Shown piece by piece: positions 12,858-30,213 of a DNA stretch of 64,000 nt; the first letter of the stretch is position 1; every line of letters starts with the position of its first letter. Origin of the DNA: an uncultured Acidobacteriota bacterium. GTDB lineage: Bacteria; Acidobacteriota; Thermoanaerobaculia; Multivoradales; JBCCEF01. The stretch covers positions 221,756 through 285,755 of the forward strand of contig CAWJJM010000012.1 of the NCBI GenBank assembly GCA_963843275.1, written 5' to 3'. A model generated the notes under the pieces. It was not told the DNA's origin and made no database searches. It saw only the letters and a program-made list of their open reading frames with translations. The translations under genes were made by a program, and so were the position numbers.

Positions 12858-12975
12858 CGGGGTCCGACCGCCACCGCGGCGGGGTCGGGAAGGACGTCGC
12901 GGGGCGTGCGACGGATCCTACCATGCCGCAGCGCGGCACGAGCGGAGCGGTCGCCGCCCGCCGCGGCGCGCGGGG

Positions 12976-13517: not shown

Positions 13518-16500
13518 GTGCGGTCGGTGGTTCGATCCTGGCGAGCGGCCCCGTGCGGCCTGTACGTGGCTCTCTTCGCGGTCGTCGTCTGCGGCGCCGC
13601 GTCGCCCGCCCACGCCGTCCAGAACCAGGTCCGCATCCTCGTCGACGCGGACGCCGAGCCGGCGACCGGCTGCACCGTGCCGACGCCGGAAGGCCCGTTC
13701 GACGGGGTCGAGTGGATCCTCACCACCACGATCGAGACCGTCGCGGTGCCGTCGCCGTCGGCCACCGTCACCGAGGTGACGAAGCAGGCCTGCGTCGACG
13801 CTTCCAGCGACACCTTCGGCCCGCCGGTGGTCGTCGACCCGGGCGACTGGCCGGTCGGGGTCGACCTCGGGCTCGACGCCTTCGACGTCGTCGAGACCTA
13901 CCTGCCGCTCTCCGACCTGCCCGCGAACGGGCTGCGGATCCGCGTCGCCGTGGTGAGCGACGACGGACAGGTTTCGCGGGCGCTGCTCGAGACCTCGCCG
14001 CGGAGCGGCCAGGACATCTTCGTCGCCATCCGCTCGATCCTGGAGATTCCTGCGCTGGGCGGTCCCGGGCTGGTGGCGTTGGCGGCGTTGCTGGCGCTGG
14101 CCGCCGCGGCGCGGTTGCGCCGCCGACCGCGGGCGGCGCTGCTGGTGGTCGCGGCGCTGCTCGGCGCCACCGGGGTGGCGTGGGCGGCCTGCGTCCTCGA
14201 CGGCGATCCGGGCGACTGGGCGCCGGGTCAGGAGATCGCCGACAACCCGCCGGCGAGCTGCCCGGGCGGCGGCGCCGAGATCCGCGCCGTCTTCGCCCAG
14301 ACGGACCCGGGGCACGTGTGCTTCCGGGTGGACACCTGCCTGCGCTTCAACACCCCGCCGGTGGCCGACCCACAGAGCGTCTCGACGCCGGAGGACACCC
14401 CCCTCGGGATCACGCTCACCGGCTCGGACGCCGACAGCGACCCGCTGACCTTCTCGATCGTCCCGGCGACCGGCCCGTCCCACGGCGGCCTCACCGGCAC
14501 GCCGCCCGACGTCACCTACACCCCGGCGGCGAACTACCACGGTCCGGACGGGTTCGACTTCCGGGTGGACGACGGCCACGGCGGCACCGGCACGGCGACC
14601 GTGTCGATCACGGTGACGCCGGTCAACGACCCGCCGGTGGCCGACGCGGACGGCTACACGGTGGACGAGGGAGCGACGCTCAACGTCACGGCCCCGGGCG
14701 TGCTCGGCGGCGACGACGACGTCGACGGCGACCCGTTGACCGCCGTGCTGGTCGCCGGCCCGTCCCACGCCGCGTCGTTCACCCTCCACGCCGACGGTTC
14801 GTTCGACTACACCCACGACGGCTCGGAGACGACGAGCGACACGTTCACCTACGAGGCGAACGACGGCGCGCTGGACTCGAACGTGGCGACGGTGACGATC
14901 ACGGTGAACGCGGTCAACGACGCCCCGGTGGCGGTCGACGACACCTACGCGGTGGACGAAGGCGGGGTGCTGAACGTCTCGGCGCCCGGGCGTGCTCGCC
15001 AACGACACCGACGCCGAGGGCGCCAGCCTGACCGCGGCCCTGGTCAGCGGCCCGGCGCACGCGTCGTCGTTCACGCTCAACGCCGACGGCTCGTTCAGCT
15101 ACACGCACGACGGCTCGGAGACACGTCGCGACACCTTCACCTACAAGGCGAACGACGGCGCCCTCGACTCGAACGTCGCCACCGTGTCGATCACGATCAA
15201 CCCGATCAACGACCCGCCGGTGGCGGACGACGACGCCTACACCGTCGACGAGGGCGGGACGGTGAGCGACGTGGCGCCGGGGCGTGCTGGCCGGCGACAC
15301 CGACGCCGAGGGCCAGCCGCTGCAGGCCCTGCTGTTCACCGGTCCGTCGCACGCGGCGGCCTTCACCCTCAACACCGACGGCTCGTTCAGCTACACCCAC
15401 GACGGCAGCGAGACGCCGCTCAGCGACTCGTTCAGCTACCGGGCGAACGACGGTGCGCTCGATTCGAACGTGGCGACGGTGACGATCACCGTCACGCCGG
15501 TCGACGACCCGCCGGTGCTCGACCTCGACGCCGACGACTCCGGCGGTACCGGCGGAGCCGACTACGCCGTCACCTTCACCGAGGGCGACGCGCGGACGCT
15601 GCTCGAGGACGCCGCCGACGCCACGATCTCCGACGCCGACTCGGCGACGCTCGCCACGCTGACGGTGACGCTGACCAACCTGCTCGACGCCGGTTCCGAG
15701 GTGCTCGACGTCGACCTCACCGGGGCCGACGCGGCCTTCTCGAAGGACTACGACACGACGACCGACCCCGCGAAGGGCGTGCTGACGGTCACGGCGTCGC
15801 CGGCGCGGCCGCTGGCCGAGTGGGTGGCCCTGCTGCGCAAGGTGACCTACGTCGACTCCGACCAGGATCCCGACGCCACGGCGCGGGTGGTCACCTTCGT
15901 GGCGAACGACGGCTCGGAGGACGGCAACACGGCGACGTCGACGGTGACGGTGGTGCCGGTCGACGACGCCCCGGTGGCCGACGCCGACGCCTACACGGTG
16001 GACGAGGGGGGCACCCTGAACGTCTCGGCGCCGGGCGTGCTCGACGGCGACACCGACGCCGAGGGCGGCAGCCTGACCGCGGCTCTGGTGAGCGGCCCGT
16101 CGCACGCCTAGTCGTTCACGCTCAACGCCGACGGCTCGTTCAGCTACACCCACGACGGCTCGGAGACGACTTCGGACTCGTTCACCTACAAGGCGAACGA
16201 CGGCTCGCTGGACTCGAACACGGCGACGGTGTCGATCACGGTGAACGCGGTCAACGACGCCCCGGTGGCGGTCGACGACACCTACGCGGTGGACGAGGGT
16301 GGGGTGCTGAACGTCTCGGCGCCCGGGCTGCTCGGCAACGACACCGACGCGGAGGGCGGCAGCCTGACCGCGGCTCTGGTGAGCGGCCCGTCGCACGCGT
16401 CGTCGTTCACGCTCAACGCCGACGGCTCGTTCAGCTACACCCACGACGGCTCGGAGACGACCGCGGACGCGTTCACCTACAAGGCCAACGACGGCTCGCT

Positions 16501-19500
16501 CGACTCGAACACGGCGACGGTCTCGATCACCGTCAACCCGGTCGACGACCCGCCGGTCGCGGTGGCCGACACGGCACAGATCTTCGAGGACCCGGGCTCG
16601 CCGACGGCGCTCGACGTGCTGGCCAACGACAGCGACGTCGACGGCGGGCCGAAGCAGGTCGTCTCCGCCACCGATCCGGCGAACGGCACGGTGGCGCTGA
16701 CCCCGGCCGGCCCCGGCCCCTACAGCGGGCTGACCTACCTGCCGGACGCCAACTACTGCAACAGCCCGGCCGGTCCGTCGGCGACCCCGGACACCTTCAG
16801 CTACACCCTGAACGGCGGTTCGTCGGCGCTGGTCAGCGTCACCGTGATCTGCGTCAACGACCCGCCGGTCGCCGGCACCGACGCCTTCGACTTCGTCGGC
16901 AACACCGAGCTGCGCGTCGATCTCGCCGCGGCGGCGACGCCTGCCGCCCTGGAGACGACCGGTTCGGGCAGCGGCGTCCTCGACAACGACAGCGACCCGG
17001 TGGAGGGCGACCCGCTGTCGATCGTCGGCCTCCACGTCGGTGCCTGCATCGACAACAGCGCGCCCTTCGACTGCACCGACGCCGCGGTGGGCCGGGTGCA
17101 GCTCGGCAGCGACGGCAGCTTCAGCTTCCTGCCGGCCGCGGGCGACGGCGACGCCAGCGAGAGCTTCCAGTACACGCTCTCCGACGGCACCGACACGACG
17201 ACGGGAACGGTGAACCTGACCCGTGTGGCCCGCGTCTGGTACGTCAAGAACGACGCCGCGGGCGGCGGCACCGGCACCTCGGCCTCGCCGTTCGACACCA
17301 TCACCGCGGCGAACCTGTCAGATGACGACGGCGACGGCGACCTCACCGACGACCTCGACTCGGCCGGCGACTGGATCTTCGTCTACTACGGCGACGGCAC
17401 CTCGAACGGTCAGTCCACCGGCCTCGTGCTCGAGGGCGGCCAGCACCTGATCGGCGAGCACGTCGGCCTGTCGCTGCCGGTGAACCTCAACGGCAACGGC
17501 TCGCCGACCGTTCTGGTGGCGGCCGCCCCGGGCAACCGGCCGCGGCTCGACGACACGGTGGCCGACGGCTTCGACGGGGTCGAGGCGCACGACGTCGTGC
17601 CGGCCGAGGTCGCCGGCATGAACCTGGCCGGCAACATCAACGGGCTCGACTGGACGACCACCGCCGCCTTCGCCGGCGCCGGCACCTTCGCCGTCCACGA
17701 CAACGTGGTGCGCTCGGCCGGCGTCGAGGGCGTCGACGTCAACCTGGCGGGGAGCGGCAACACCGTCCTCTCGTTCCACGACAACGCCCTGACCGCGACC
17801 GGCACCGCCCTCGACGTCCAGGAGACCGGCAGCGGGGCCCTGACGATCAGCGCCTTCGACGACAACACGGTCGGCGGCAACACCGGCGGCTCGGGCCTGG
17901 TCGTCAACGGCGCCACGTTCGACGCGGTCCCCGGCGGCGGCATCGACACGGTCCTCGGCGGCACGACGGCGATCGGCGCCTCCGGCAACGGCGTCGGCCA
18001 GGCCGGCCTGATGCTCTCCAACGTCCAGGGCGACCTGCACTTCGCCAACCTGTCGGTCTACGCCGACTCGGGCGCGGGCCTCGGCGTCACCGGGACCGGC
18101 GCCGGCATGACCTTCCGGGTCAACTCCGGCGGCGGCGCGACCGGCGTCGTCCAGGCGATCAACGGGCCGGCGGTGTCGGCGAGCGCCGTGGCGTTCGACC
18201 TGCGGCTGTCCGACATGGACAGCACCAACAGCACGAGCCAGGGCGTGTCGCTGACCAACGTCACCGGCACCTTCTCGGCCGAGTCCGGCAGCGCGATCAC
18301 CAACGCCACCGGGACCGACTTCCTGATCAGCGGCGGCACCGCCAACGTCACCTACAAGGGCGCGATCACCGACGACGTCGGCCAGCTCGTCGCGGTCTCC
18401 GGCGCCACCGCCGGTACCAAGAGCTTCGAGGGGGCCATCACCGACGGCGACGACGGCGACGGCAGCGGCGTGTCGTTGTCCAGCAACACGGGCGCGACGG
18501 TGCGCTTCTCGGGCGGCCTGGTGCTGTCGACGGGTGCCAACCCGGCCTTCGCGGCGACCGGCGGCGGCACGGTGGAGATCTGCGACGAGACCCCCTGCAA
18601 CCCCGCCGCGACGGGCCTCGCCGTCAACAAGATCACCACCACGACCGGGACGGCGCTGAACGTGGCGAACACCAACATCGGCGCCAACAACCTCGAGCTG
18701 CGCAGCGTCTCGGCGGGCACGGCGGGGAGTGGGCCCACCAACGGCATCGTGCTCAACACCACCGGGTCGGGGGGCGGCCTGAAGGTCAAGGGCAACGGCT
18801 CGGCGGGCTCGGGCGGCACGATCCAGAAGACGACCAGCGACGCGATCGCGCTGACCAGCACGCAGCACGTCGCCCTGTCGTCGATGAACGTGCAGAACAG
18901 CGCCGAGAGCGGCATCCTCGGCTCCTCGGTCACGGATCTCGACCTCACCGGCTGTAGCTTCACCAACAACGGAGACGACTCGGCGGACGTCGGCGTCAAG
19001 GTCACGAACCTCGCCGGCTCGGCGACGTTCAGCGGCACCTCGATCACCGGCTCGGCGCTGGCCAACGTGTTCATCGACAACACCGCGGCGGCCTTGAGCT
19101 CGTTCACCATCTCGGGCGGCAGCTACGGCAGCCTGGGAACGGCGTTCGGCGGCAACTCGATCCTGCTCAACATCCGCGGCACGTCGACTCTGACCACCGG
19201 CAGTGTCAGCGGCATCACGGTGGCGAACAACAAGCCGGCCCGCGGCATCACCGTGCAGGCGCAGGACACGGCCACCATCTCCGACTTCACGGTGCAGACC
19301 AGCACCTTCACCAACAACGGCCTGCAGGCGAGCTTTGAGCAGTCGGGGTCGGCCAACCTGTCCTTCAAGCTGCTCAACAACCCGACGATGACGATGACGT
19401 TGCCGGCGGCGGGCACCAGCCATGCGGTCAACGTGTCGAGCTCGTCGACCTCGACGGGGGGCACCATCCAGGGCCGCATCCAGGGCAATACCATCGGCAA

Positions 19501-20011
19501 CGCCGCGGTGGCGAGCTCCGGCTCGCCGATCGGCAACGGCATCCGTGTCCTGGTCCAGGGCCGCACCACCGCCACGCTGCTCATCGACGGCAACACCATC
19601 CGCCAGGTGCCGCAGGCGCGCGGCATCGACGTCCAGTTCCTCGGGCCGCTCTCCTCGGGGCAGCCGCTGTCGCAGAGCGACGTCACGGTCACCGGCAACG
19701 ACGTCAACCCGCAGGATTCGACGGGCTTCCCGACCGCCGCCATCTACCTGGCGGCGGACAGCCAGGGCGGCTCACCGGTTCGCATGCGCTCCGACGTGCG
19801 CAGCAACACCGTGCCGGCCGGCGCCGCCTTCGACGCGCTACCGACGTACCTGATCGTCGACGAGGTCGCGGCGGCGGCGGAGGCGCAGCTCGTCGACACC
19901 GCGCCGGCGAGCGCGAGCTGCACCGCGCAACTGACCAGCACCAACACCGGCAGCGCCTCGGCGGCGGCCGGCTGCGCCCTGATCGCGGGCCCGATCAACA
20001 CGCCCCCCTAG
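13518..20011 (+). CDS. Giant (~2160 aa) secreted repeat protein/adhesin: at least 9 tandem ~95-aa cadherin/Ig-like (VCBS, tandem-95 type) repeats plus ~900-aa Gly/Thr/Ser/Asn-rich beta-helix-like C-terminal region; 2 frameshifts and 1 in-frame TAG as assembled
   Basis: Repeats of form VNDAPVAVDDTYAVDEGGVLNVSAPG..DTDAEGGSLTAALVSGPSHASSFTLNADGSFSYTHDGSETT.DTFTYKANDGSLDSNTATVSITV; frame 0 to ~14990, frame 1 to ~15285, frame 2 to 20011; TAG at 16109-16111; first ~200 aa may be a separate fused ORF (see findings). Confidence 0.75.
14340..16860 (+). repeat. Intragenic tandem repeat array (~285-bp period, several copies about 90% identical at DNA level) inside giant adhesin gene
   Basis: e.g. 14893-15185 and 16232-16525 are near-identical (gtgaacgcggtcaacgacgccccggtggcggtcgacgacacctacgcggtggacga...). 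Confidence 0.8.
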
Positions 20012-20059
20012 GAGCGCGGGGGGGGGCGCCCGGAACCGTCCGGGCGGGGAGGCGGGTGG

Positions 20060-20563
20060 ATGGCGGAACCTTTCCTCAGTGAGATCCGACTGATGGGCTT
20101 CGGCTTCCCACCGAAGGGCTGGGCGCTGTGCGACGGGCAGCTTCTCCCGATCAACCAGAACCAGGCGTTGTTCTCGCTGCTGGGGACGACCTTCGGCGGC
20201 GACGGGCGGGTCAACTTCGCGCTCCCCGACCTGCGCGCCCGGGTCCCGATCCACGTCGGCGGTGGGCACACCCTGGGCGAGCGCGGTGGCGAGCAGGGGC
20301 ACACCCTGAGCCTCGCGGAGATGCCCACCCACACCCACGTGCTCCAGGCGACGTCGAGCGACGGCACCCAGGTGATCGCCGCGGGAGCCCTGCTGGCGCG
20401 CGCGGCGCCTGCCAACCCCTATTCGGCCCCGACGAACCTGGCGGCGATGCAGGCCGCCTCGGTCGCCAACAACGGCGGCAGCCAGGCGCACCTCAACCTG
20501 CAGCCGCTCCTGACCCTCAGCTTCTGCATCGCCCTGCAGGGCATTTTCCCGAGCCCGACCTGA
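20060..20563 (+). CDS. Phage tail-collar domain protein (MdpB/COG4675-like), paralogue 1 of 3
   Basis: MAEPFLSEIRLMGFGFPPKGWALCDGQLLPINQNQALFSLLGTTFGGDGRVNFALPDLRARVP...HTHVL = Collar (PF07484-like) signature; C-terminus ...LNLQPLLTLSFCIALQGIFPSPT; GGAGG RBS. Confidence 0.85.
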   Translation: MAEPFLSEIRLMGFGFPPKGWALCDGQLLPINQNQALFSLLGTTFGGDGRVNFALPDLRARVPIHVGGGHTLGERGGEQGHTLSLAEMPTHTHVLQATSSDGTQVIAAGALLARAAPANPYSAPTNLAAMQAASVANNGGSQAHLNLQPLLTLSFCIALQGIFPSPT

Positions 20564-20572
20564 GGAACGACG

Positions 20573-21073
20573 ATGGCCCAACCCTACGTCGGGGAGATTC
20601 GCATCTTCGGCGGTAACTTCGCGCCCGCGGGGTGGATGTTCTGCGAAGGGCAGCTGTTGCCGATCTCGGAGAACGAGACGTTGTTCCAGCTCATCGGAAC
20701 GACCTACGGCGGAGACGGACAGGACACCTTCGGGCTCCCGGATCTGCGGGGCCGATTGCCGGTCCACCAGGGCAACGGCTTCGTTCTCGCGCAGGCCGAC
20801 GGCGCGGAGGAGGTCACCCTGACCGTGAGCCAGATCCCGTCCCACGCACACCCCCTGCTCGCGGCCAACGCCGTCGGGAACGATCCCAACCCCCAGGGCA
20901 ATCTGCTCGCCGAGAGCTCCGCGGTGTCGATGTACCAGAGCGGTGCGGCGAACGCCGCGATGGCGACGTCGATCGCCGCGGTGGGCGGCAGCCAGCCGCA
21001 CACCAACTTCCAGCCCTATCTCTGCCTGAACTTCATCATCTCTTTGTTCGGCATCTTCCCCAGCCCGACCTAG
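20573..21073 (+). CDS. Phage tail-collar domain protein, paralogue 2 of 3
   Basis: MAQPYVGEIRIFGGNFAPAGWMFCEGQLLPISENETLFQLIGTTYGGDG...LPDLRGRLP...PSHAHPL; C-terminus ...NFQPYLCLNFIISLFGIFPSPT; 9-bp spacer from paralogue 1. Confidence 0.85.
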   Translation: MAQPYVGEIRIFGGNFAPAGWMFCEGQLLPISENETLFQLIGTTYGGDGQDTFGLPDLRGRLPVHQGNGFVLAQADGAEEVTLTVSQIPSHAHPLLAANAVGNDPNPQGNLLAESSAVSMYQSGAANAAMATSIAAVGGSQPHTNFQPYLCLNFIISLFGIFPSPT

Positions 21074-21080
21074 GAGCGAC

Positions 21081-21608
21081 ATGGCCGACCCCTTCGTCGC
21101 CGAGATCCGCATCTTCCCCTTCAACTTCGCACCCAAGGGCTGGGCCTTCTGCGACGGCCAGCTCCTGCCGCTGTCGCAGAACACCGCGCTGTTCTCGCTG
21201 CTCGGGACCACGTACGGTGGCAACGGCAAGTCGAACTTCGCGCTGCCGGATCTTCAGGGCCGGGCGCCGATGCACCCTGGCCAGGGCCCGGGTCTCTCGC
21301 TGCACGACCTCGGCGAGACCGGCGGGTCGGAGACGGTGACCCTTCTCGAGTCCGAGACGCCCGCTCACGGGCACACGCTGCAGTCCAACGGCGCGCCCGC
21401 GAACCGGACCACTCCGGTGGGCAACTCCATCGCCCGGGTCTCCGGTGCGACGCCCTACTCCGACGGCGCCGCGAACCCGCCGAGGGTGCCGATGTCCGAC
21501 CAGGCCCTCGCCCCCGCGGGCGGCGACCAGCCGCACAACAACATGATGCCCTTCCTGACCCTCAACTTCTGTATCGCCCTGCAGGGCGTCTTTCCGCCGC
21601 GCACCTGA
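21081..21608 (+). CDS. Phage tail-collar domain protein, paralogue 3 of 3
   Basis: MADPFVAEIRIFPFNFAPKGWAFCDGQLLPLSQNTALFSLLGTTYGGNGKSNFALPDLQGRAP...PAHGHTL; C-terminus ...NMMPFLTLNFCIALQGVFPPRT; 7-bp spacer from paralogue 2. Confidence 0.85.
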   Translation: MADPFVAEIRIFPFNFAPKGWAFCDGQLLPLSQNTALFSLLGTTYGGNGKSNFALPDLQGRAPMHPGQGPGLSLHDLGETGGSETVTLLESETPAHGHTLQSNGAPANRTTPVGNSIARVSGATPYSDGAANPPRVPMSDQALAPAGGDQPHNNMMPFLTLNFCIALQGVFPPRT

Positions 21609-21618
21609 GGAGCGCCCG

Positions 21619-22478
21619 ATGAGCCGACGCTGGTCGTTCCGGGAGGCGGAGGAAGGGTGGTCGCGGCGCCGTTTCCTCCGGGTCGGCGCGGCGGCCGCCG
21701 CCGCGGGATGGTGGGCCCGCTTCGACCTCGGGCAGCCGCCGCCGGCGGCCGCCGAGCCGCCGGTCTCGGTGGGCTACGTGGTCGGCAGCGAGGAGCTTCC
21801 CGACGTCGCCCGGCCGCCGTGGTGGGCGGCGTTCCGCGCCGCCTCGGAGGCCCGCGCCGCGCGGCGGCCGGTGGCGGAGTCTTCCGGCGCCGCGCCGGTC
21901 GACGTGGTACCGGCGGCCTACCTGCCGGGGGACCCGCGGTTGGCCACCGTGCCGGTGCGGATCGCCGTGCTGGGACTGTACCCGGGCCTCGGCGACCTGC
22001 CCGGGGTGACCTACGACCTGCTGCTCACCGCCCACTTCCTCACCGGGGACCCGGCGGCCCCCGACCTGCCGTTCCACTGTTGGGGCTGGCGCGACGATCC
22101 GGCGCCGACCTCGGGGTCCCCGCTGCGCTTCACGGTGCCGGTGGAGCGCGAGACCGGGTTGCGCCTCACCCTCGACGCCCACCAGCTGGTCGCCCCGCGT
22201 TCCCCGGACCGGGCCCGGCTGTCCGGGCGGGGCGGCGCGGCGGGCGGCGGAGGGGCCGCCGTGCGCGGCGCCGCCCCGACCGCCGAGCGCTTCGTCTCCC
22301 GCCGCGACGTCCGCCTGTCGCTGGGCCTCGAGTCCGGGGCGCCGAGGCTGCAGCGCGGCGTCTACCTGCTGGCGCTCGAGCCGGGCACCTGGGACTCCCC
22401 GCGCCAGCTCCCCCCGGCGCGCTGCCCTGGGAGACCGCGTCGTCGGTGGTGCTGGCGGTGGAGGCGGCGGAGGGCTGA
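21619..22478 (+). CDS. Tat-signal secreted hypothetical protein (frameshift at C-run ~22420)
   Basis: [33 protein letters not shown] = twin-arginine signal; 10 bp after collar paralogue 3; frame 1 to ~22420 then frame 0 ...ALPWETASSVVLAVEAAEG* (stop 22478); longer ORF to 23265 is read-through/antisense. Confidence 0.55.
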
Positions 22479-22510: not shown

Positions 22511-22640
22511 CTACCAGCCGCCTCCTCCGCCGCCGCCGGACGACCCGCCGCCCCCGCCGCCGCCGCCGCCGGACGAGCCGCCGGAGGAGCTCGAGGCGGC
22601 GGAGACGCCCGCCGCCATGCCGCCGATCGCCGCGGTCCAC
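22511..22640 (-). repeat. GC-rich simple-sequence tract (ccgccgccg / ggacga... repeats) encoding the Gly/Ser tail of the DUF2207 protein
   Basis: ccagccgcctcctccgccgccgccggacgacccgccgcccccgccgccgccgccgccggacgagccgccggaggagc... read directly. Confidence 0.7.
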
Positions 22641-24505
22641 GATCCCGAGGCTCCGCCGCCGCCGAACGCCCCGCCGCCGCCGGTCCAGCCGCTGCTCCCG
22701 GAGGTCAGCGCCCCGCCGCCGGTCGTGGCCTCGGCCAGGCCGCCGCCGGCCGCCGCGACGCCCCAGCGGCGCGACCAGCGCGCCACCCTGCCGCCGAGGC
22801 CGAAGGCGAGCAGATAGGGAAGCCAGGCGTCGTCGAGCGCGGGGCGCTCGCGCCCGAGCTCGGCGCGCAGCCAACGGCGCGCCAGGTGGAGGCGACCGCG
22901 CAGGCGCAGCATCTCCGCCGTCTCGCGGCTCGCGGCGTGGTGCAGGAAGCTCGACAGGACGACCAGCGGCGCGAGCAGGCAGGCCGCGATCCCGAACGGT
23001 CCGAGGTGCGGATAGCCGTCCCCCGGCCACCAGTGGTCGTGCCCGGCGACGGCGACCGCGGCGGCGGCCAGCGCCGCCCAGGGCAGGAGGAAGCCGAGCG
23101 CCGCCGGCCCGAGGTGGCGCATCCGGTGACGCCAGCGGGCCGCGCTCCCGGCGCCGAGCAGGAGGCTCAGCAGGAATCCGGCGACGAGGAGCAGGGCGAG
23201 GACGATCGCCTGGCCGGCGCCCCGCGTGGCCCCCTCGCCGACCAGGCAGGCCAGACAGGCCGTGAAGAGGAGCAACGTCCGCCGCGCCCGTGGCTTCGCG
23301 GTCTCGGCGGCGAGCCCGCGGCGGCCCCCGAGGCGCTTCTCGATGCCCTTGCGGACGATGTCGACCGGGGAGAAGCCGCGGGAGCGGTAGTGGCGGCGGA
23401 CGGCGGCGGTGTCGGTCACCCGCCGGTCACCGAAGAAGAGCTTGTCGATCAGGGTGCGCTCGTAGCCGGTGAGCTCGCCCCGCGGCACCTCGAGCTCGAG
23501 CTCGAGCTCGGGGGAGCCGAACCACCAGCGCGGCGGCTTGACGGTGCTCGCCAGCTTGCCCTCGGCGACCAGCCGGGCGAGCAGCGCCGCCACCTCGGCG
23601 GAGCCGACCTCGCGGTCCCACAGGGCCCCGAGCTGCTCGGCCGGCAGCGCCAGCACGGTGCTCTCGATCCAGGCGCGGTCGGGGTGGGAGGGCAGCTCGG
23701 GGTCGCGGCGGAAGCGGCCGAGCGCCGCCTCGCGGCGGACGAAATCGGCGGCCAGCAGCGCGGCGGCGGCTGCGGCGGCGGCGAGCAGCGCGAAGAGCAC
23801 GCTGCGGCGGACGGCGCGCAGGGTGGCGCCGGGAACGCCGTCGCCGACGTGGTCGAGGTCGACGGTCACCACCTCGGTGGCGCCGGGGGGCAGCGGGCCG
23901 CCCTCGCGGTGCAGGTGGCCCGCGCCGTCGAACAGTGGATTGCGCGGCGGCGGTCGCCAGGCGGGATCGAGGTCGAGGTCGAGGACGAAGCGCTCGATGG
24001 CGCCGTCGCGGTCGGGGAAGGCGAAGTCGTGGTCGAGGCGGTAGAGACCCGGCCGCCCCGCGTGCTGGGTGAGCACCCCGGTGAGCCGGTAGGCCAGCAG
24101 GTAGGTGATCTCGGTCCCGTCGAAGGGCGGGTCGTCGGGCGCCCGGCTGCGCCAGCGCAGGGTGGTCGAATCGCTCCAGTCGTAGTGGTCGACGCTGTCG
24201 AGATCGCCCGCCACCAGCGGCAGCTCGGCGCCCGTCGCCGCGTCGAGGCGCGCCACCCGGTCGAGCGCGAGATGCTGGCCCATGGCGACGCGGAAGCGGC
24301 GCTCGCCGCCGTTCCAGTCGCCGGTGAACACGATCGCCTGGCGCTCCTCCACGTGCAGAGCGCCGTCGGCGTCGAGGCGGGCGTGCACCGCGAGCTCGCG
24401 CCAGTGGAGCTCCCGCTCCTGGGCGGCGGACGGCGGGGCGAGGGCGAGCGCCGCGAGCGCCAGGAGCCCGGCACCGCCGAGGAACCGGTTCGGCTTCGTT
24501 GCCAT
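22511..24505 (-). CDS. DUF2207-family membrane protein with N-terminal signal peptide and Gly/Ser-rich C-terminal tail ending in Trp
   Basis: Start MATKPNRFLGGAGLLALAALALAPPSAAQ; extracellular domain; several TM helices (LLLFTACLACLVGEG..., IVLALLLVAGFLLSLLLGAG...); tail ...GGGGASGSWTAAIGG...SSGGGGGGGGGSSGGGGGGGW typical of DUF2207. Confidence 0.7.
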   Translation of the reverse strand: MATKPNRFLGGAGLLALAALALAPPSAAQERELHWRELAVHARLDADGALHVEERQAIVFTGDWNGGERRFRVAMGQHLALDRVARLDAATGAELPLVAGDLDSVDHYDWSDSTTLRWRSRAPDDPPFDGTEITYLLAYRLTGVLTQHAGRPGLYRLDHDFAFPDRDGAIERFVLDLDLDPAWRPPPRNPLFDGAGHLHREGGPLPPGATEVVTVDLDHVGDGVPGATLRAVRRSVLFALLAAAAAAAALLAADFVRREAALGRFRRDPELPSHPDRAWIESTVLALPAEQLGALWDREVGSAEVAALLARLVAEGKLASTVKPPRWWFGSPELELELEVPRGELTGYERTLIDKLFFGDRRVTDTAAVRRHYRSRGFSPVDIVRKGIEKRLGGRRGLAAETAKPRARRTLLLFTACLACLVGEGATRGAGQAIVLALLLVAGFLLSLLLGAGSAARWRHRMRHLGPAALGFLLPWAALAAAAVAVAGHDHWWPGDGYPHLGPFGIAACLLAPLVVLSSFLHHAASRETAEMLRLRGRLHLARRWLRAELGRERPALDDAWLPYLLAFGLGGRVARWSRRWGVAAAGGGLAEATTGGGALTSGSSGWTGGGGAFGGGGASGSWTAAIGGMAAGVSAASSSSGGSSGGGGGGGGGSSGGGGGGGW

Positions 24506-24605: not shown

Positions 24606-24899
24606 CTAGGTGAAGACCGCCTCGTAGGTCGTGCCGTCGTCGTCGCGGGCGACCGGGACCAGGAAGAGGTCCAGGACCCCCATCTCGGTGTTCTCCAGGC
24701 GGTAGATCCGCTGCGGGAGCAGCGGCTCGCGCGGGCCGTGGAAGTGGAGCGAGAACTGCTCGCGCGCCGCGCGGCCCTGCAGCCCGGTGCTGCGGACGTC
24801 CGCCAGCTCGAGGTCGATCTCACCCGACGCCGCGCCGGCGAGGCGGAAGGCCTCGCCCCGCCGCGGCAGGAACGAGTCCTTGGTCAGCTTGTCCAGCAT
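24606..24899 (-). CDS. Hypothetical protein (97 aa)
   Basis: MLDKLTKDSFLPRRGEAFRLAGAASGEIDLELADVRSTGLQGRAAREQFSLHFHGPREPLLPQRIYRLENTEMGVLDLFLVPVARDDDGTTYEAVFT; GC3-rich codon usage; no recognisable domain. Confidence 0.4.
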   Translation of the reverse strand: MLDKLTKDSFLPRRGEAFRLAGAASGEIDLELADVRSTGLQGRAAREQFSLHFHGPREPLLPQRIYRLENTEMGVLDLFLVPVARDDDGTTYEAVFT

Positions 24900-24947
24900 C
24901 GGTCCCCCCGGTAGAGTCCCCGGAGTATATAGAGCAGGGAGGTAGGG

Positions 24948-25530
24948 ATGTCGAAACGTCGAGCAGCCCCCGGCCGCCACCGGACCGGTCACCGCGTCCC
25001 CGGCCGGCCTGCGCCTGCGCCCCGCGGTGGACGACGACCTGCCGTTCCTGGCGGAGCTCTACGCCTCCACCCGGCGGGCCGAGGTCGACCCCCTGCCCTG
25101 GACCGCGGAGGAGAAGGAGGGCTTCCTGCGCTGGCAGTTCGAGAGCCAGCACCGCCACTACCTGGAGTACTACCCGGGGTGCGAGCGGCTGGTGGTCGAG
25201 CGGCCCATCGGGGGGGCGACGAGCGCCGCGACGGCGCCGGTCGGCCGCCTCTACGTCGACCGCTGGCCGGACCAGATCCGGCTGGTCGACATCGCGCTGC
25301 TGCCCGAGCACCGCGGCCGGGGGCTCGGCTCCGCCCTGCTGGAGACGATCCTCGCCGAGGGCCGGCGGCGGTCGCTGCCGGTCACCATCCACGTGGAGGC
25401 GAACAACCCCGCGCTGCGCCTCTACCGCCGCCTCGGCTTCCGCCACGTCGACGACAACGGCGTCTATCAGCTCCTCGAGTGGCGGCCGGAGGGGGCGCCG
25501 CCGGCGGCGGCGGCCGCCGCGTCCCCCTGA
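24948..25530 (+). CDS. GNAT family N-acetyltransferase (frameshift at A-run ~24955)
   Basis: ATG 24948 then shift: M S (K/N) V E Q P P A A T G P V T A S P A G L R L R P A V D D D L P F L A E L Y... ; acetyl-CoA-binding motif ...LLPEHRGRGLGSALLETIL... Confidence 0.75.
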
Positions 25531-26990: not shown

Positions 26991-28694
26991 ATGCTTTTGC
27001 GGAGCCTGCGAACCCTTGTGATGCTGGCCGCGATGCTGGGGGTCTCCGGAGCGACCTTTGCGGAGGACGCCGCCGACCTCCTGCTGACGCACGGCGTCTT
27101 CTACCCCGTGGTGCCGCCGGGGTCGGTGCAGGGCAGCCTGGCGGTCCGGGGCGGGCGCATCGTCTACCTCGGACCCGACGCGGGAGCCGCGGCCTACCGC
27201 GGCCCGGCGACCGAGGTGATCGACCTGCGCGGGCGCGCCGTCACGCCGGGGCTGATCGACGCCCACTCCCACCTGACCGGCCTCGGCCAGGCGCTCGCCC
27301 AGGTCGACCTGGTGGGGACCGGCAGCTATGCCGAGGTGGTGTCGCGGGTCGCCGCCGCGGCGGCCGACGCCCCCGCCGGCGCCTGGGTCCGCGGCCGCGG
27401 CTGGGACCAGAACGACTGGGCCGACGAGGCCTTCCCGACCCACGGGGCGTTGAGCCGGGCGGTGCGCGACCACCCGGTGTGGCTCACCCGCATCGACGGG
27501 CACGCGGCGCTGCTCAACGCGGCCGCCATGGAAGCGCTGGGGATCGGGCCGGACACCCCCGACCCGCCCGGCGGCCGCCTGCTGCGCGACGCGGCCGGGC
27601 GGCCCACCGGCGTGCTGGTCGACAACGCGATGGACGTCGCCGTCGGCCGCATTCCCGAGCCCACCCTGGCCGAGCGCGAGAAGGCCCTGCGCCGCGCCGC
27701 CGAGCACTGCCTGGCGCGCGGCCTGACGACGGTGACCGACATGGGGGTGGGCGCCGACGACCTGGCCGCCTACCAGGCGCTGCGCGCGGCGGGGGAGCTG
27801 CCGCTGCGGGCGGCGGTGTTCCTCGCCGACGACGCCGACCTGCTGGCGGATTGGCTGCCGCGCGGGCCGCGCCTCGATCCCGAGGGCCGGCTCACCATCC
27901 GCGGCGTCAAGCTGTACGCCGACGGCGCCCTGGGCAGCCGCGGCGCGGCCCTCCTCGAGCCCTACGACGACGACCCGGGCAACCTCGGGCTGCTCGTGTC
28001 GAGCGGCGACCACCTGCGCGACGTCGCCACGCGGTCGCTGGCGGCGGGCTTCCAGGTCGGCATCCACGCCATCGGCGACCGCGGCAACCTGGTGGCGCTC
28101 GACGCCCTCGAGGCGGCGCTGGCGACCCTGCCGGAGGGCGCCGCGGACCCGCGGGTGCGGATCGAGCACGCCCAGGTCATGCGGCCGCAGGACATCGTGC
28201 GCATGGCGCGGCTCGGGGTGATCGCCTCGATGCAGCCCACCCACGCCACCTCGGACATGCCGTGGGCCGCCGACCGGGTGGGGGCGCTGCGGCTCGCCGG
28301 CGCCTACGCCTGGCGGAAGGTCCTCGACGCCGGCGGGCGGCTGGCGCTGGGCAGCGACTTCCCGGTCGAGCGGGTCGATCCGCTGCTCGGCATCTACGCC
28401 GCGGTGACCCGCCAGGACCTCGACGGACGGCCGCCGGGCGGCTGGCTTCCCGACCAGCGGCTGAGTCGCGCCGAGGCGCTGCGCGGCTTCACCCTCGACG
28501 CCGCCTGGTCGCTGTTCCTCGACCCGCTGGTGGGCTCGCTCGAGCCGGGCAAGCGCGCCGACCTGGTGGTGTTCGACCGCGATCCGATGCAGGTGCCGGC
28601 GATCGAGATCCCGCGGGTGGCGGTGGACCTGACCGTGGTCGACGGCCGCGTCGCCTACCGGCGGGCGCAGCCGGCGGCGGAGGGGGCGCGATGA
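26991..28694 (+). CDS. Secreted amidohydrolase (Amidohydro_3 / YtcJ-like metal-dependent hydrolase)
   Basis: MLLRSLRTLVMLAAMLGVSGATFA signal; ...VTPGLIDAHSHL...WLTRIDGHAALLN...VGIHAIGDRGN...LALGSDFPVE...; 568 aa intact. Confidence 0.85.
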   Translation: MLLRSLRTLVMLAAMLGVSGATFAEDAADLLLTHGVFYPVVPPGSVQGSLAVRGGRIVYLGPDAGAAAYRGPATEVIDLRGRAVTPGLIDAHSHLTGLGQALAQVDLVGTGSYAEVVSRVAAAAADAPAGAWVRGRGWDQNDWADEAFPTHGALSRAVRDHPVWLTRIDGHAALLNAAAMEALGIGPDTPDPPGGRLLRDAAGRPTGVLVDNAMDVAVGRIPEPTLAEREKALRRAAEHCLARGLTTVTDMGVGADDLAAYQALRAAGELPLRAAVFLADDADLLADWLPRGPRLDPEGRLTIRGVKLYADGALGSRGAALLEPYDDDPGNLGLLVSSGDHLRDVATRSLAAGFQVGIHAIGDRGNLVALDALEAALATLPEGAADPRVRIEHAQVMRPQDIVRMARLGVIASMQPTHATSDMPWAADRVGALRLAGAYAWRKVLDAGGRLALGSDFPVERVDPLLGIYAAVTRQDLDGRPPGGWLPDQRLSRAEALRGFTLDAAWSLFLDPLVGSLEPGKRADLVVFDRDPMQVPAIEIPRVAVDLTVVDGRVAYRRAQPAAEGAR

Positions 28695-29416
28695 GGCGGG
28701 TCCGCCGGGCGGCGGCCGCCCTGCTCGCCGCGTCGCTCGCCGGCGCCGGCGCCGCGCCGCTGGCGGCCGCCCCGGCCGACCCGTACCGGGAGCAGCGCCA
28801 GGAGATGGTCGAGCAACAGGTCCGGGGGCGGGGGATCGACGACCCGGCCGTCCTGGCGGCGATGGCCGAGGTGCCACGGCACCTCTTCGTCGCCGAGGCC
28901 GACGTCGCCACCGCCTACGCCGACCGCGCCGTCGCCATCGGCTACGGCCAGACCGTCTCGCAGCCCTACGTGGTGGCGCTGATGACCTCGCTGCTCGGCC
29001 TCGACCACGACGACCGGGTGCTGGAGATCGGCACCGGTTCGGGCTACCACACGGCGGTGCTGTCGCGGGTCGCCGGCCGCGTCTACTCGATGGAGATCAT
29101 CGAGCCGATGGCCCGCCAGGCGCAGCGGCGGCTCGCCTCGCTGGGCTACGACAACGTCGAGATCCGGGTCGGCGACGGCTACAAGGGCTGGCCCGAGGAG
29201 GCGCCGTTCGACGCCATCATCCTCACCGCCGCGCCGCCGCGGATCCCCCAGCCGCTGATCGACCAGCTCAAGGTGGGCGGGCGCATGGTGGTGCCGGTCG
29301 GCGGCTACATCCAGGATCTGCAGGTGATCGACAAGACGGCGGACGGACTGCAGAAGCGCACCGTCATCCCGGTGCGGCTGCAGCCGATGACCGGGCAGGT
29401 GCGGGAGGGCGGATGA
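28691..29416 (+). CDS. pcm: Protein-L-isoaspartate O-methyltransferase with N-terminal signal peptide (copy 1)
   Basis: MRRVRRAAAALLAASLAGAGAAPLAAAPA then ...AMAEVPRHLFV...AIGYGQTVSQPYVVALMT...VLEIGTGSGYHTAVLS...GDGYKGWPEEAPFDAIILTAA; ATG overlaps upstream stop (ATGA). Confidence 0.9.
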   Translation: MRRVRRAAAALLAASLAGAGAAPLAAAPADPYREQRQEMVEQQVRGRGIDDPAVLAAMAEVPRHLFVAEADVATAYADRAVAIGYGQTVSQPYVVALMTSLLGLDHDDRVLEIGTGSGYHTAVLSRVAGRVYSMEIIEPMARQAQRRLASLGYDNVEIRVGDGYKGWPEEAPFDAIILTAAPPRIPQPLIDQLKVGGRMVVPVGGYIQDLQVIDKTADGLQKRTVIPVRLQPMTGQVREGG

Positions 29417-30213
29417 GGCTGCCGGCCGCCGGAGCGCTGGCGGTCGTCGCGCTGGCCGTTCCGCTGGCCGCCTGCCCCGGCCGCTCGCCGGCCGCGCCGC
29501 CGGGCCCCGGCGCCGGCTTCGCCGACCAGCGTCAGGCCATGGTCGACGTGCTGCGCTCGGCCGCGATCCGCGACCCGCGGGTGCTGGAGGCGATGGCCGA
29601 GGTCCCCCGCCACCGCTTCGTGCCGCCGCCGTGGCAGGGCGCCGCGTACCGCGACGAGCCGCTGCCCATCGGCCACGGCCAGACGATCTCCCAGCCCTAC
29701 GTGGTCGCCCTGATGTCGTCGCTGGCCGACCTCCACGGCGGCGACAAGGTGCTGGAGATCGGCACCGGCTCGGGCTACCACGCCGCGGTGCTGTCGCGCC
29801 TCGCCGGCCGCGTCTACTCGATCGAGATCGTGCCAGCGCTCGCCGACCGGGCGCGCCGCACCCTCGCCGAGCTGGGCTACCGCAACGTCGAGGTGCGCCG
29901 CGGCGACGGCTACAGGGGGTGGCCGGAGGCGGCGCCGTTCGACGCCATCGTGCTGACCGCGGCGCCGCGACACATCCCGCCGCCGCTGCTCGCCCAGCTC
30001 GCCGTGGGCGGACGGCTGGTCGCCCCCGTGGGCGGCCGCGAGCAGGAGCTCACGCTGATCACCCGCACCCCGGCGGGCTACCGGCGCGAGTCGATCACCC
30101 CCGTGCGCTTCGTCCCCATGACGGGGGAGGCGGACCGGGAGCCCGGGTCGGAGCCCGGCCCCGGCTCCGACCCCGGCCGAGCCGCCGATCCTGGCGGCCG
30201 TGCACCCGGTTGA
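29413..30213 (+). CDS. pcm: Protein-L-isoaspartate O-methyltransferase with lipoprotein-like signal peptide (copy 2)
   Basis: MRLPAAGALAVVALAVPLAAC...; ...AMAEVPRHRFVP...PIGHGQTISQPYVVALMS...VLEIGTGSGYHAAVLS...GDGYRGWPEAAPFDAIVLTAA; start overlaps pcm-1 stop (ATGA). Confidence 0.9.
   Translation: MRLPAAGALAVVALAVPLAACPGRSPAAPPGPGAGFADQRQAMVDVLRSAAIRDPRVLEAMAEVPRHRFVPPPWQGAAYRDEPLPIGHGQTISQPYVVALMSSLADLHGGDKVLEIGTGSGYHAAVLSRLAGRVYSIEIVPALADRARRTLAELGYRNVEVRRGDGYRGWPEAAPFDAIVLTAAPRHIPPPLLAQLAVGGRLVAPVGGREQELTLITRTPAGYRRESITPVRFVPMTGEADREPGSEPGPGSDPGRAADPGGRAPG

Follow-up and report, generated by a model that had tools for sequence, protein, structure and literature searches.

Three adjacent genes of an uncultured Acidobacteriota bacterium, here called A, B and C, encode paralogous Collar-domain proteins that we read, with a probability of roughly 0.55, as a domesticated heterotrimeric tail-fibre tip that acts outside the cytoplasm together with a giant adhesin. 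According to this reading, a single chain each of A, B and C would intertwine into a pseudo-threefold 'knitted' trimer of ~53 kDa, held by a metal ion on the three HxH motifs, and this trimer would be a ligand-recognition head outside the cytoplasm, the partner of the Sec-exported giant cadherin/beta-helix adhesin encoded upstream. As the adhesin stalk is one polypeptide and not a trimer, three different chains would be required, and other bacteria would have met the same problem by putting three collar modules in one chain, sometimes within the adhesin itself. The unfused A, B and C would fold and assemble in the cytoplasm; more speculatively, the folded trimer could cross the membrane piggy-backing on the adjacent Tat-signal protein, and a GNAT acetyltransferase and a signal-less DUF6916 protein could help the trimer to mature or assemble. 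Bacterial genomes and soil metaproteomes are rich in Collar-domain (COG4675) proteins, to which, to our knowledge, no mechanism has been assigned outside phages. The analysis covered the whole 64-kb stretch of DNA that carries the genes (the window) and 88 triplet loci.

The three open reading frames are intact and lie on the plus strand: A at 20060-20563 (167 aa), B at 20573-21073 (166 aa) and C at 21081-21608 (175 aa). A Pfam scan placed each of them in the Collar family PF07484, far above the cut-off of 24 bits (A: 94 bits, E = 5e-27; B: 98 bits, E = 3e-28; C: 98 bits, E = 4e-28), and thus bore out an earlier note on this DNA that had recognised three Collar proteins. The same note had put their mutual identity at 40-55% and we measured 48% (A/B), 54% (A/C) and 52% (B/C); the N-terminal signature and the C-terminal motif that it quoted are present in A, B and C, and the spacing that it gave is correct, with gaps of 9 bp (A-B) and 7 bp (B-C) and a Tat-signal gene that begins 10 bp past C. 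The polypeptides have no signal peptide and no shaft but begin right at the collar (MAxPF..EIR), C is distinguished by a GPGLS insertion, and the GC3 of the genes (0.90-0.92) equals that of the host genome. The two elements that had been named upstream of A both exist on the plus strand: the inverted repeat cgcccgga-accg-tccgggcg (8-bp stem; 20027-20046), which lies between the adhesin stop and gene A, and a GGAGG ribosome-binding site (20048-20052), which is read directly from the sequence 7 nt upstream of the gene A ATG. The hairpin, however, folds no more stably than shuffled sequences (z = +1.04; matched by 170 of 200 shuffles) and lacks a T tract, and it is probably not a functional terminator; terminator and promoter scans detected nothing.

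The similarity to phage tail proteins extends over the full length of the chains. The PHROG tail-protein profile phrog_9116 matches residues 7-167 (E = 1e-22 to 2e-28), in a tblastn search of phage records the alignments span 89-96% of the query (36-38% identity), and a profile search against the PDB recovers the long tail fibre 8kec (5e-6) and T4 gp12 (1.8e-3) in a match that includes the HxH region. The HxH motif is invariant in the three proteins (HTH in A, HAH in B, HGH in C), both histidines are among the best-conserved columns in ~80 orthologues of each, and the three motifs together would bind a metal ion. T4 gp12 and gp37 (PDB 1OCY, 2XGF) and 8KEC have in common with A-B-C the Collar and, after it, the HxH metal-binding motif, a head insert at the distal end and a C-terminal strand running back to the collar, as well as the combination of a conserved base with a variable tip. 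The phage tips, however, are homotrimers that end a long shaft of the same polypeptide and are encoded in tail modules, whereas we find three paralogous chains of ~170 aa, shaftless and chromosomally encoded. Collar C alone has more than 8000 homologues, the best of which (78-88% identical) come from Acidobacteriota and Alphaproteobacteria; its orthologues are annotated at JGI as 'microcystin-dependent protein', and none of A, B, C, the Tat protein and DUF6916 has a model in NCBIfam. The relatives of the window genes point to Thermoanaerobaculia as their lineage.

The triplet was found in 80 genomes of at least seven phyla and its order is A-B-C in every untruncated locus; cultured carriers include Mesorhizobium and Chiayiivirga flava DSM 24163. 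Each position is orthologous throughout, with 72-75% identity within a position (means: A 74.5% over 80+ loci, B 72.4%, C 75.1%) versus 47-53% between positions, and the genes remain closely packed (median gaps of 11 and 12 bp in 79 triplets). The collar genes come in clusters of 3, 6 or 9. The triplet is part of a larger cassette, which comprises a large protein with the beta-helix-like region of the adhesin, A-B-C, a GNAT, a DUF6916 protein and in many cases a Tat-signal protein of one family or another; the large surface protein, the GNAT and DUF6916 were the only widely recurring neighbours in the 88 loci, and the Tat-signal proteins recur less widely. The cassette appears to be undescribed, and a literature search returned no paper that joins 'tail collar' with 'twin-arginine'.

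With a domain that is typical of phage tail fibres, matches to PHROG tail families and relatives in 322 phage records, A-B-C could in principle be remnants of the tail-fibre genes of a prophage or tailocin that has degraded, devoid of a host function. This explanation is effectively refuted by the genomic context and by the sequences themselves. No phage structural gene was identified by Pfam among the ~35 ORFs of the window, where the triplet is surrounded by chromosomal housekeeping genes, and in the 88 loci, none of which was seen to be embedded in a prophage or tailocin, the families conserved up to 6 kb from the triplet include no sheath, tube, baseplate, tape-measure, capsid or terminase; the earlier statement that the region is not a prophage is thereby upheld. 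A triplet was recovered from a single IMG/VR 'viral' contig, where it stands on the far side of the integrase, apparently in the host flank. Moreover, the phage relatives are at most 38% identical to the window proteins, as against 65-88% for the bacterial orthologues, the genes have the GC3 of the host and the collar base is under intense purifying selection.

A second question is whether the three chains assemble together or apart. All solved relatives, including T4 gp12, gp37 and 8kec, are homotrimeric, which is the rule for phage collar proteins, every paralogue retains its own HxH motif and a complete collar, and the three tips are dissimilar; these features would fit three small lectin-like fibres of different specificities, each a homotrimer of its own. 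We nevertheless consider such an arrangement improbable, since independent homotrimers need no inheritance as an ordered set, while the order and the one-each stoichiometry are strictly kept across phyla and the clusters grow in multiples of three. Natural fusions support the same conclusion. A search of 1.84 billion (1.84e9) proteins yielded 40,261 matches (clusters at 50% identity), and among the best 150 of these 40,261 the chain contains exactly three collar modules in 101 cases, two in 42, six in three and eleven in one; the two-module chains imply a 2+1 arrangement. A precedent for joint assembly is provided by the virophage DSLV2, in which three consecutive, co-oriented PF07484 genes encode proteins of ~19 kDa each that co-purify as a 1:1:1 heterotrimer (PMC12724248). 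The trimer forms a ~16-nm fibre that binds cells and that was docked computationally to LPS (J Virol 2025, PMC12724248), and it is the only experimentally supported heterotrimeric collar assembly that we found. The window and the 80+ other loci likewise contain three consecutive, co-oriented PF07484 genes of ~170-180 codons; the virophage genes, however, adjoin capsid genes and their trimer was proposed to sit on the capsid, whereas the bacterial genes are accompanied by an adhesin, a Tat-signal protein, a GNAT and DUF6916. Positional orthology and the fusions, together with this precedent, lend strong if indirect support to the heterotrimer that the earlier note had suggested, and a 1:1:1 assembly of A, B and C seems to us the probable state.

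The large protein of the cassette is represented in the window by a giant cadherin/Ig-repeat adhesin (13518-20011, plus strand) with a Sec-type signal peptide (MRSVV...SPAHA) and Pfam domains Cadherin_4, Big_9 and Cadherin_5, which is 77% identical to a 1544-aa adhesin of another triplet locus (L001). The part that is kept next to collar triplets in other phyla is its C-terminal region of ~930 aa (17216-20011, plus strand; adhC). It was found beside the triplet in 64 of 87 loci (tblastn with residues 580-1260), so that the suspected synteny of adhesin and collar genes is indeed kept. AdhC has no match in Pfam, NCBIfam, PDB sequences, PHROGs or PADLOC, but it is rich in repeats whose pattern suggests a beta-helix-like fold, and a relative in a second locus (L002) has a faint Pfam Beta_helix match. 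The adhesin reading frame of the window is broken (the frame changes near 14960-14992 and 15270-15284, and an in-frame stop occupies 16109-16111); together with the frameshift in the Tat gene that is described below, this may reflect decay of the cassette in this genome or an error-prone assembly.

Across the loci, identity reaches 87.8% in the collar parts but only 35.5% in the distal tip. Selection, and not recent transfer, accounts for the conserved base, because in the same comparison the GNAT is only 47% and adhC 38% identical. The divergence of the tip does not co-vary with that of adhC (Spearman 0.06; 0.18 or less for the tip versus adhC or GNAT) and there is therefore no support for a contact between tip and adhesin or for their co-evolution.

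The same lack of co-variation is compatible with an ABC assembly that never leaves the cytoplasm, where it could serve, along with GNAT and DUF6916, for instance as a sensor, as a scaffold or in an enzyme-like capacity, and whose adjacency to surface genes would be a matter of co-regulation and not of physical partnership. The absence of signal peptides from A, B, C, GNAT and DUF6916, the roughly half of the loci in which no Tat-signal neighbour was seen and the many fusions that likewise have no signal (24 of the three-module and 37 of the 42 two-module chains among the best 150 of 40,261 have no signal peptide at all) are also in its favour. We attach little probability to it in view of the other fusions. 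Sec-like signal peptides occur on 48 of the 101 three-module chains (again among the best 150 of 40,261), canonical Tat signals were recognised on one three-module and one two-module chain (P0359 and P0288, respectively), and some triplets are built into giant extracellular adhesins: P0317 unites six collars with ten Cadherin_4 domains and Big_9, the same domain families as in the window adhesin, and in P0329 three collars are fused to FG-GAP and PATR repeats. In Ruegeria pomeroyi, furthermore, a PF07484 protein was detected in the exoproteome (PMC4949626), and the combination of a conserved base with a hypervariable tip is what marks an exposed binding surface. The fusions indicate the stoichiometry (three modules form one unit), the location (via the Sec and Tat signals) and that collars and giant adhesins are physically linked, from which we infer a surface location of the unfused trimer and its docking to the adhesin.

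How a signal-less trimer might be exported is suggested by the gene that follows C. It encodes a Tat-signal protein (21619-22478, plus strand; 286 aa after a 1-nt repair) and had been described as a Tat-exported protein in the earlier note, a view that is corroborated by the twin-arginine motif SRRRFL, which is invariant in the window protein and 11 aligned homologues (RRRF in all 12). The N-terminus, which includes AAAEP, combines the S/T-R-R-x-F-L-K motif of Tat substrates with a hydrophobic region and an Ala-rich cleavage region, and export is predicted. The stretch up to 22478 is, however, not a single ORF: it measures 860 nt, GC3 changes frame near 22380-22410, and the C6 run at 22410-22415 is one base short, which puts the gene out of frame in this assembly. 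When one C is added to this run the C-terminus aligns with the homologues (LPxGALPxEL..SLVVAVEA), and without it no such alignment is obtained. The family has remote proteobacterial relatives (hhalign probability 94.7%, E = 6e-8), and its AF2 model, built on a 12-sequence alignment, has a pLDDT of 44, too low for a fold search. A possible identity as a disguised DUF6916 protein was dismissed, because the profile-profile comparison was negative (probability 1.5%).

The synteny with the Tat protein that had been supposed holds in a general sense and not for the particular family. Some Tat-signal protein stands next to the triplet in 42 of 88 loci, often 8-50 bp from A or C, whereas the family of the window is lineage-restricted and follows gene C in 15 loci; the other triplet-side Tat ORFs belong to several families, including a Tat signal combined with DUF6916. 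ORFs with a Tat motif are enriched near the triplet (45/1366 within 3.5 kb versus 13/1494 farther off; odds ratio 3.9, p = 3.6e-6). In E. coli, signal-less subunits of hydrogenase-2 (HybOC) and DMSO reductase (DmsAB) are exported as Tat 'hitchhikers', and the cassette resembles these systems, by analogy only, in that signal-less, oligomeric, cofactor-binding subunits are encoded beside a subunit with a twin-arginine signal. The partner in the cassette, unlike that of HybOC and DmsAB, differs in family by lineage. It was not found in about half of the 88 loci, the Mesorhizobium locus having a 2OG-Fe(II) oxygenase in its stead, and hitchhiking is therefore not a universal export route. For the loci that do have the partner, export of the trimer by hitchhiking is a speculation prompted by gene adjacency (the 10-bp spacing and the enrichment) and by the Tat-signal-collar fusions P0359 and P0288.

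The most far-reaching version of our reading would have an 'in trans' tip in many phyla, which is assembled in the cytoplasm with the help of GNAT and DUF6916, carried out by Tat and mounted on a monomeric adhesin, to provide a swappable asymmetric head for the discrimination of kin, prey, host or substrate; taken as a whole we regard this chain of steps as rather unlikely. The domesticated heterotrimeric tip as such, if true, would explain how a trimeric viral recognition fold fits monomeric bacterial adhesin stalks, would give DUF6916 a first functional context, could define a new class of Tat-exported multi-chain cargo, and would constitute a widespread diversifying surface-recognition module of possible importance for the way in which soil and water bacteria adhere, aggregate and interact with other bacteria or with hosts. 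In any case, a 'phage tail protein' annotation is turned into a defined and testable system with an ordered triplet, a fixed set of partners and informative fusions.

Other bacterial uses of the Collar domain resemble the cassette only in part. The COG4675 'microcystin-dependent protein', RhiB and MrpB of Microcystis are, like A-B-C, non-phage PF07484 proteins of bacteria to which no function has been assigned. RhiB is the Collar protein of rhiABC (PMC13133039), yet that locus combines a single Collar gene with the unrelated RhiA and RhiC and with rhiI/rhiR quorum sensing, and has no ordered triplet, GNAT or DUF6916; conversely, no LuxI or LuxR Pfam match was found among the triplet neighbours in the window (RhiA and RhiC have no Pfam models). 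In a conjugative-pilus shufflon a PilV-Collar fusion was proposed to represent repurposing of the collar for surface recognition (NAR 2023, PMC9881135). It shares with the cassette a non-phage use in bacteria and a built-in variability, but consists of a single collar on a pilin that is varied by programmed inversion, and neither a triplet nor the cassette is present.

The remaining core members of the cassette lie outside the region that was delimited in the earlier note, at 24609-25530. The DUF6916 protein (24609-24899, minus strand; 97 aa, PF21880 E = 1.7e-28, 99 bits versus a cut-off of 27) has no signal peptide and is present in 67 of 87 loci; in the window a gene for a DUF2207 membrane protein stands between the triplet and DUF6916. 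Its AF2 model is a small six-stranded beta-barrel (pLDDT 83). It was considered as a PilZ c-di-GMP receptor and rejected, the RxxxR and D/NxSxxG motifs not being found, and the literature search returned no paper on DUF6916. The GNAT (25027-25530, plus strand; Acetyltransf_1 E = 2e-13), also without a signal peptide, is present in 75 of 87 loci at 1-3 kb from the triplet. The roles of both proteins, and likewise the nature of the ligand, can only be a matter of speculation.

GNATs act as immunity or resistance enzymes in other systems, and the trimer might accordingly be the receptor-binding part of a secreted antagonistic system (a lectin-like bacteriocin or toxin-targeting device), with the GNAT for self-protection and an arms race with target cells that drives the tips. 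Relative to the other parts of the cassette the hypervariable tips are shuffled, collar paralogues of Solibacter have been reported to be under positive selection (PMC3174227), and the docking of the virophage trimer to LPS (PMC12724248) would agree with such a role. It is improbable all the same: no toxin domain was found in the three collar proteins, the Tat protein or the scanned regions of the adhesin, no gene-pair architecture of killing and immunity was recognised, the database matches of the GNAT are generic and PADLOC gives no match, on which ground a defence-system reading was rejected as well. As regards the GNAT gene itself, the homology begins at 25006, upstream of the ORF, and an ATG at 24948 with a GGGAGG site is the likely true start, although it lies one base out of frame.

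Three co-oriented genes of the forward strand, here called A (20060-20563, 167 aa), B (20573-21073, 166 aa) and C (21081-21608, 175 aa), were found intact by ORF listing and direct reading. An HMM scan matched all three products to the Pfam Collar domain (PF07484, E ~1e-27) and so bore out the earlier note, which had taken them for tail-collar proteins; its mutual identity of 40-55% (48-54% measured) and its spacing, with 9 bp between A and B, 7 bp between B and C and 10 bp from C to a Tat-signal gene, were likewise recovered. The three proteins share an invariant HxH motif and their N-termini, MA(E/Q/D)P(F/Y)..EIR, carry no signal peptide. Of the hairpin and GGAGG site that were said to precede the array, the latter lies 7 nt 5' of A and an inverted repeat is present (20027-20046, without a T tract), but its stability does not exceed that of shuffled sequence (z = +1.04; the DNA is 75% GC).

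Compared with solved structures, the family profile matched a long tail fibre (8KEC, E = 5e-6, HxH region included) and T4 gp12 (1.8e-3); a full-length match was found to PHROG tail-protein families, and the relatives present in sequenced phages do not exceed 38% identity and are labelled as minor tail proteins. IMG/VR yielded three full-length matches; in the one inspected, a triplet and a GNAT acetyltransferase gene lie beyond an integrase, in what looks like host flank. That the genes are a phage remnant is effectively excluded: no phage gene was found in the 64-kb window, and an all-against-all clustering of the ORFs within 6 kb of related triplets gave no conserved phage gene, which agrees with the absence of phage structural genes and the non-prophage setting that had been claimed. 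Elsewhere, the genes of the window serve ordinary chromosomal functions (serA, pyrD, gltB, pstCA, a thiolase, an ECF sigma factor, a CLC channel, Kup and others). In the literature, virophage DSLV2 likewise has three consecutive Collar proteins, and there they were shown to form a 1:1:1 heterotrimeric cell-binding fibre (PMC12724248). Collar proteins have further been described as RhiB, the lone member within rhiABC (PMC13133039), in the Ruegeria exoproteome (PMC4949626), as Solibacter paralogues under positive selection (PMC3174227), in soil metaproteomes (COG4675) and as a PilV-Collar fusion in a shufflon (PMC9881135).

C has more than 8000 database relatives; the best 120, at 78-88% identity, belong to Thermoanaerobaculia, Pyrinomonadaceae and even Allomesorhizobium, and the source of the window is placed in Thermoanaerobaculia by its relatives. 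With one genome scanned per GTDB species, 80 triplet loci were obtained, spread over Acidobacteriota, Actinomycetota, Chloroflexota, Verrucomicrobiota, Bacteroidota, Gemmatimonadota and alpha-, beta- and gamma-Proteobacteria. The A-B-C order was kept in every locus that is not cut by a contig end, with median gaps of 11 and 12 bp (79 triplets), and the closest window counterpart of each gene was the one at the same position (mean identity A-A 74.5%, B-B 72.4% and C-C 75.1%, against 47-53% between positions). More than one triplet (two or three) is present at some loci, and on IMG/VR contigs the genes number six and nine; the count is always a multiple of three. The fixed order, the position-wise identity and the multiples of three imply that the triplication is older than the spread of the unit and that the paralogues were inherited as a set; judged from these comparisons, the triplet appears to be an ancient, ordered unit. 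Three tandem triplets occur in a Gemmatimonadales locus (L033), nine consecutive collar genes on one IMG/VR contig (L090) and six, in the order B-A-C, on another (L089); the B-A-C order was also seen in eight single-chain fusions.

Conservation is unevenly distributed along the proteins. Per orthologue set, the top-residue frequency is 0.88-0.96 in the collar parts (residues 1 to ~98, including HxH, and from ~140 up to the C-terminus) and 0.62-0.65 in the insert that follows HxH (~99-140). Over 51 loci the pairwise identity was 87.8% for the collar parts and 35.5% for the tips, and in the same loci the GNAT acetyltransferase was 47% and the adhesin domain 38% identical. The collar base thus greatly exceeds its neighbours in conservation, which speaks for selection and against recent transfer; GC3 (0.90-0.92) is also at the level of the host genome. 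Tip divergence was hardly correlated with that of other cassette parts (all Spearman ≤ 0.18), and the tips are shuffled independently of the rest. A receptor-binding protein would be expected to show just such a conserved base and hypervariable tip; a bacteriocin-like targeting module is one of the main rival readings.

An exhaustive HMMER search with C in 1.84 billion representative proteins gave 40,261 matches at E ≤ 1e-3 (4,328 at E ≤ 1e-30). Among the 150 top-scoring of the 40,261, 101 proteins contained three collar modules in one chain (median 547 aa), 42 two (median ~345 aa), three six (median 1538 aa), two a single one (median 329 aa), and one each four (795 aa) and eleven (4832 aa); as the ranking favours multi-module proteins, these counts show that fusions are common and not what share of the family they make up. 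A Sec-like signal peptide was detected by a simple heuristic in 48 of the 101 three-module proteins, and canonical Tat signals in one three-module (P0359) and one two-module protein (P0288). In P0317 (3740 aa), six collars stand together with ten Cadherin_4 domains and Big_9, families that it shares with the adhesin of the window, and in P0329 (4079 aa) three collars are joined to FG-GAP and PATR repeats. The fusions independently indicate that three modules constitute one unit, that this unit acts outside the cytoplasm and that it can belong to a giant monomeric adhesin. They bear on two further main rivals: i) that A, B and C form three separate homotrimers, and ii) that they have a cytoplasmic role, as proteins that themselves lack signal peptides might. 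Some fusions are circularly permuted, such that the C-terminal collar strand comes first, as would fit a closed pseudo-trimer whose strands are exchanged; in many single-chain three-module proteins (P0266, P0269, P0280, P0313 and others) a signal peptide is followed by the C-terminal strand motif (GGGQPH.N.QPSL.LNYII) and then by the first module.

The best-supported reading, which like all functional statements made here draws on sequence, synteny and fusions, is that A, B and C represent a domesticated heterotrimeric tail-fibre tip. One chain of each would join in a trimer that would serve as an extracytoplasmic recognition head, working with the neighbouring giant adhesin. That the chains are three and different, or the modules three and fused, would be a natural consequence if a trimeric viral fold has to be fitted to a bacterial stalk or partner that is monomeric.

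The gene set that recurs near the relatives comprises a large surface protein, A-B-C, the GNAT acetyltransferase and DUF6916 (~97 aa). Of 87 loci searched with tblastn, many of which are truncated, 75 have GNAT, 67 DUF6916, 64 the C-terminal beta-helix-like region of the adhesin (adhC; 17216-20011, + strand, in the window) and 12 the window's own Tat protein family (15 with an iterated HMM). Of the proposed association of adhesin, triplet and Tat protein, the adhesin is kept and this particular Tat family is lineage-restricted; the clustering of ORFs within 6 kb gave no other widely conserved family, and no secretion machinery. In the window, DUF6916 (24609-24899, - strand) and GNAT (~25006-25530, + strand) are displaced from the triplet by a gene (22511-24505, - strand) whose product, a DUF2207 membrane protein, has a long Gly/Ser tail and which is absent at that position from all other loci and therefore appears to be a lineage-specific insertion. 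GNAT has generic matches only, including RimI-type and N-terminal acetyltransferases, and we found no mention of DUF6916 in the literature; from their neighbourhood, a role in maturation or assembly is probable for GNAT and the cytoplasmic DUF6916. The inheritance of the cassette is mosaic, with the adhesin and triplet block apparently exchanged apart from the Tat/GNAT/DUF6916 block. Compared to the window, locus L078 is 89% identical in GNAT, 85% in the Tat protein and 84% in DUF6916, and only 69-79% in A, B and C and 39% in adhC, whereas L001 is 83-88% identical in A, B and C and 87% in adhC, and 56% in the Tat protein and 66% in GNAT, which lies 10 kb away. L001 (11412-15825) and L002 (4195-8145), both close relatives, have a second, convergent cassette with an adhC-related protein of 774-898 aa and a more divergent triplet (49-64% identity); a cytochrome c gene separates the two cassettes.

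The Tat-signal gene of the window (21619-22478, + strand) starts 10 bp 3' of C. It was claimed to encode a Tat-exported protein, and the canonical twin-arginine signal is there; the 860 nt are not a single ORF, as the GC3 signal changes frame near 22380-22410. Only after one C is added to the C6 run at 22410-22415, where an assembly indel is probable, does the C-terminus align with 11 homologues (~280 aa). The protein is predicted to be mostly beta strand, and its structure model (pLDDT 44) was too poor for use. In other lineages, genes adjoining C or preceding A encode twin-arginine signals on proteins too diverged for BLAST. Using a motif-plus-hydrophobicity rule, we found Tat-like ORFs in 42 of 88 loci, frequently 8-50 bp from the triplet, and they were enriched within 3.5 kb of it (45/1366 vs 13/1494 farther away; odds ratio 3.9, p = 3.6e-6). 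They include: the window-type family of Acidobacteriota, with remote proteobacterial relatives (hhalign 94.7%, E = 6e-8), fusions of a Tat signal and a DUF6916 domain (16-19 loci; hhalign 99.8%), a Chloroflexota-type family and a few more. Given these fusions beside plain DUF6916, many cassettes have two DUF6916 paralogues, one cytoplasmic and one Tat-targeted. The lack of signals on A, B and C next to Tat-signal proteins suggests that a pre-assembled, metal-bound trimer might be exported by Tat hitchhiking, as do the Tat-collar fusions and those single-chain fusions that carry Sec signals. This route is speculative and cannot be universal: Mesorhizobium loci (L064, for one) have no Tat neighbour and a 2OG-Fe(II) oxygenase in its place. 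The locus of Chiayiivirga flava DSM 24163 (L050), another cultured carrier, does have a Tat neighbour. We found no literature that joins 'tail collar' and 'twin-arginine'. The oxygenase (PF13640, prolyl-hydroxylase-like) replaces a Tat-signal protein between C and GNAT in L083, L047 and L043 (Mesorhizobium, Pyrinomonadaceae) and hints at post-translational modification of the collar proteins.

The giant adhesin (start 13518, + strand) has a Sec-type signal peptide and Cadherin_4, Big_9 and Cadherin_5 repeats. At least two frame changes interrupt it, near 14960-14992 and 15270-15284, and an in-frame stop (16109-16111) falls inside a conserved repeat (GPSHA*SFTLNADGSF); the gene may be a pseudogene here, or its repeats may be mis-assembled. 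Like the adhesin and the Tat gene, housekeeping genes are split (2086-3646 and 8267-12917): serA into two ORFs, and glutamate synthase (gltB) with GATase_2, Glu_synthase and GXGXG on separate ORFs and frames. This points to assembly-wide homopolymer indels of a long-read assembly and not to decay, although the stop in the adhesin could be real. The 5' end of GNAT is probably interrupted as well: its first in-frame start (GTG 25027) lies downstream of the start of homology at 25006, a well-placed ATG (24948), which has a GGGAGG site, is off frame by one base, and with a C5 run nearby (~24967-24971) the mismatch is probably another indel. The 5' part of the adhesin ORF (13518-14300) resembles two merged genes, the first for a small sorted protein and the second for the adhesin: its initial ~200 aa comprise a signal peptide and a small domain, after which come an IPTL-CTERM-like sorting signal (EIPALGGPGLVALAALLALAAAARLRRR) and a second signal-peptide-like stretch. 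Further downstream (27479-30213) two protein-L-isoaspartate O-methyltransferase (PCMT) genes adjoin, the first with an N-terminal extension of ~430 aa without a Pfam match.
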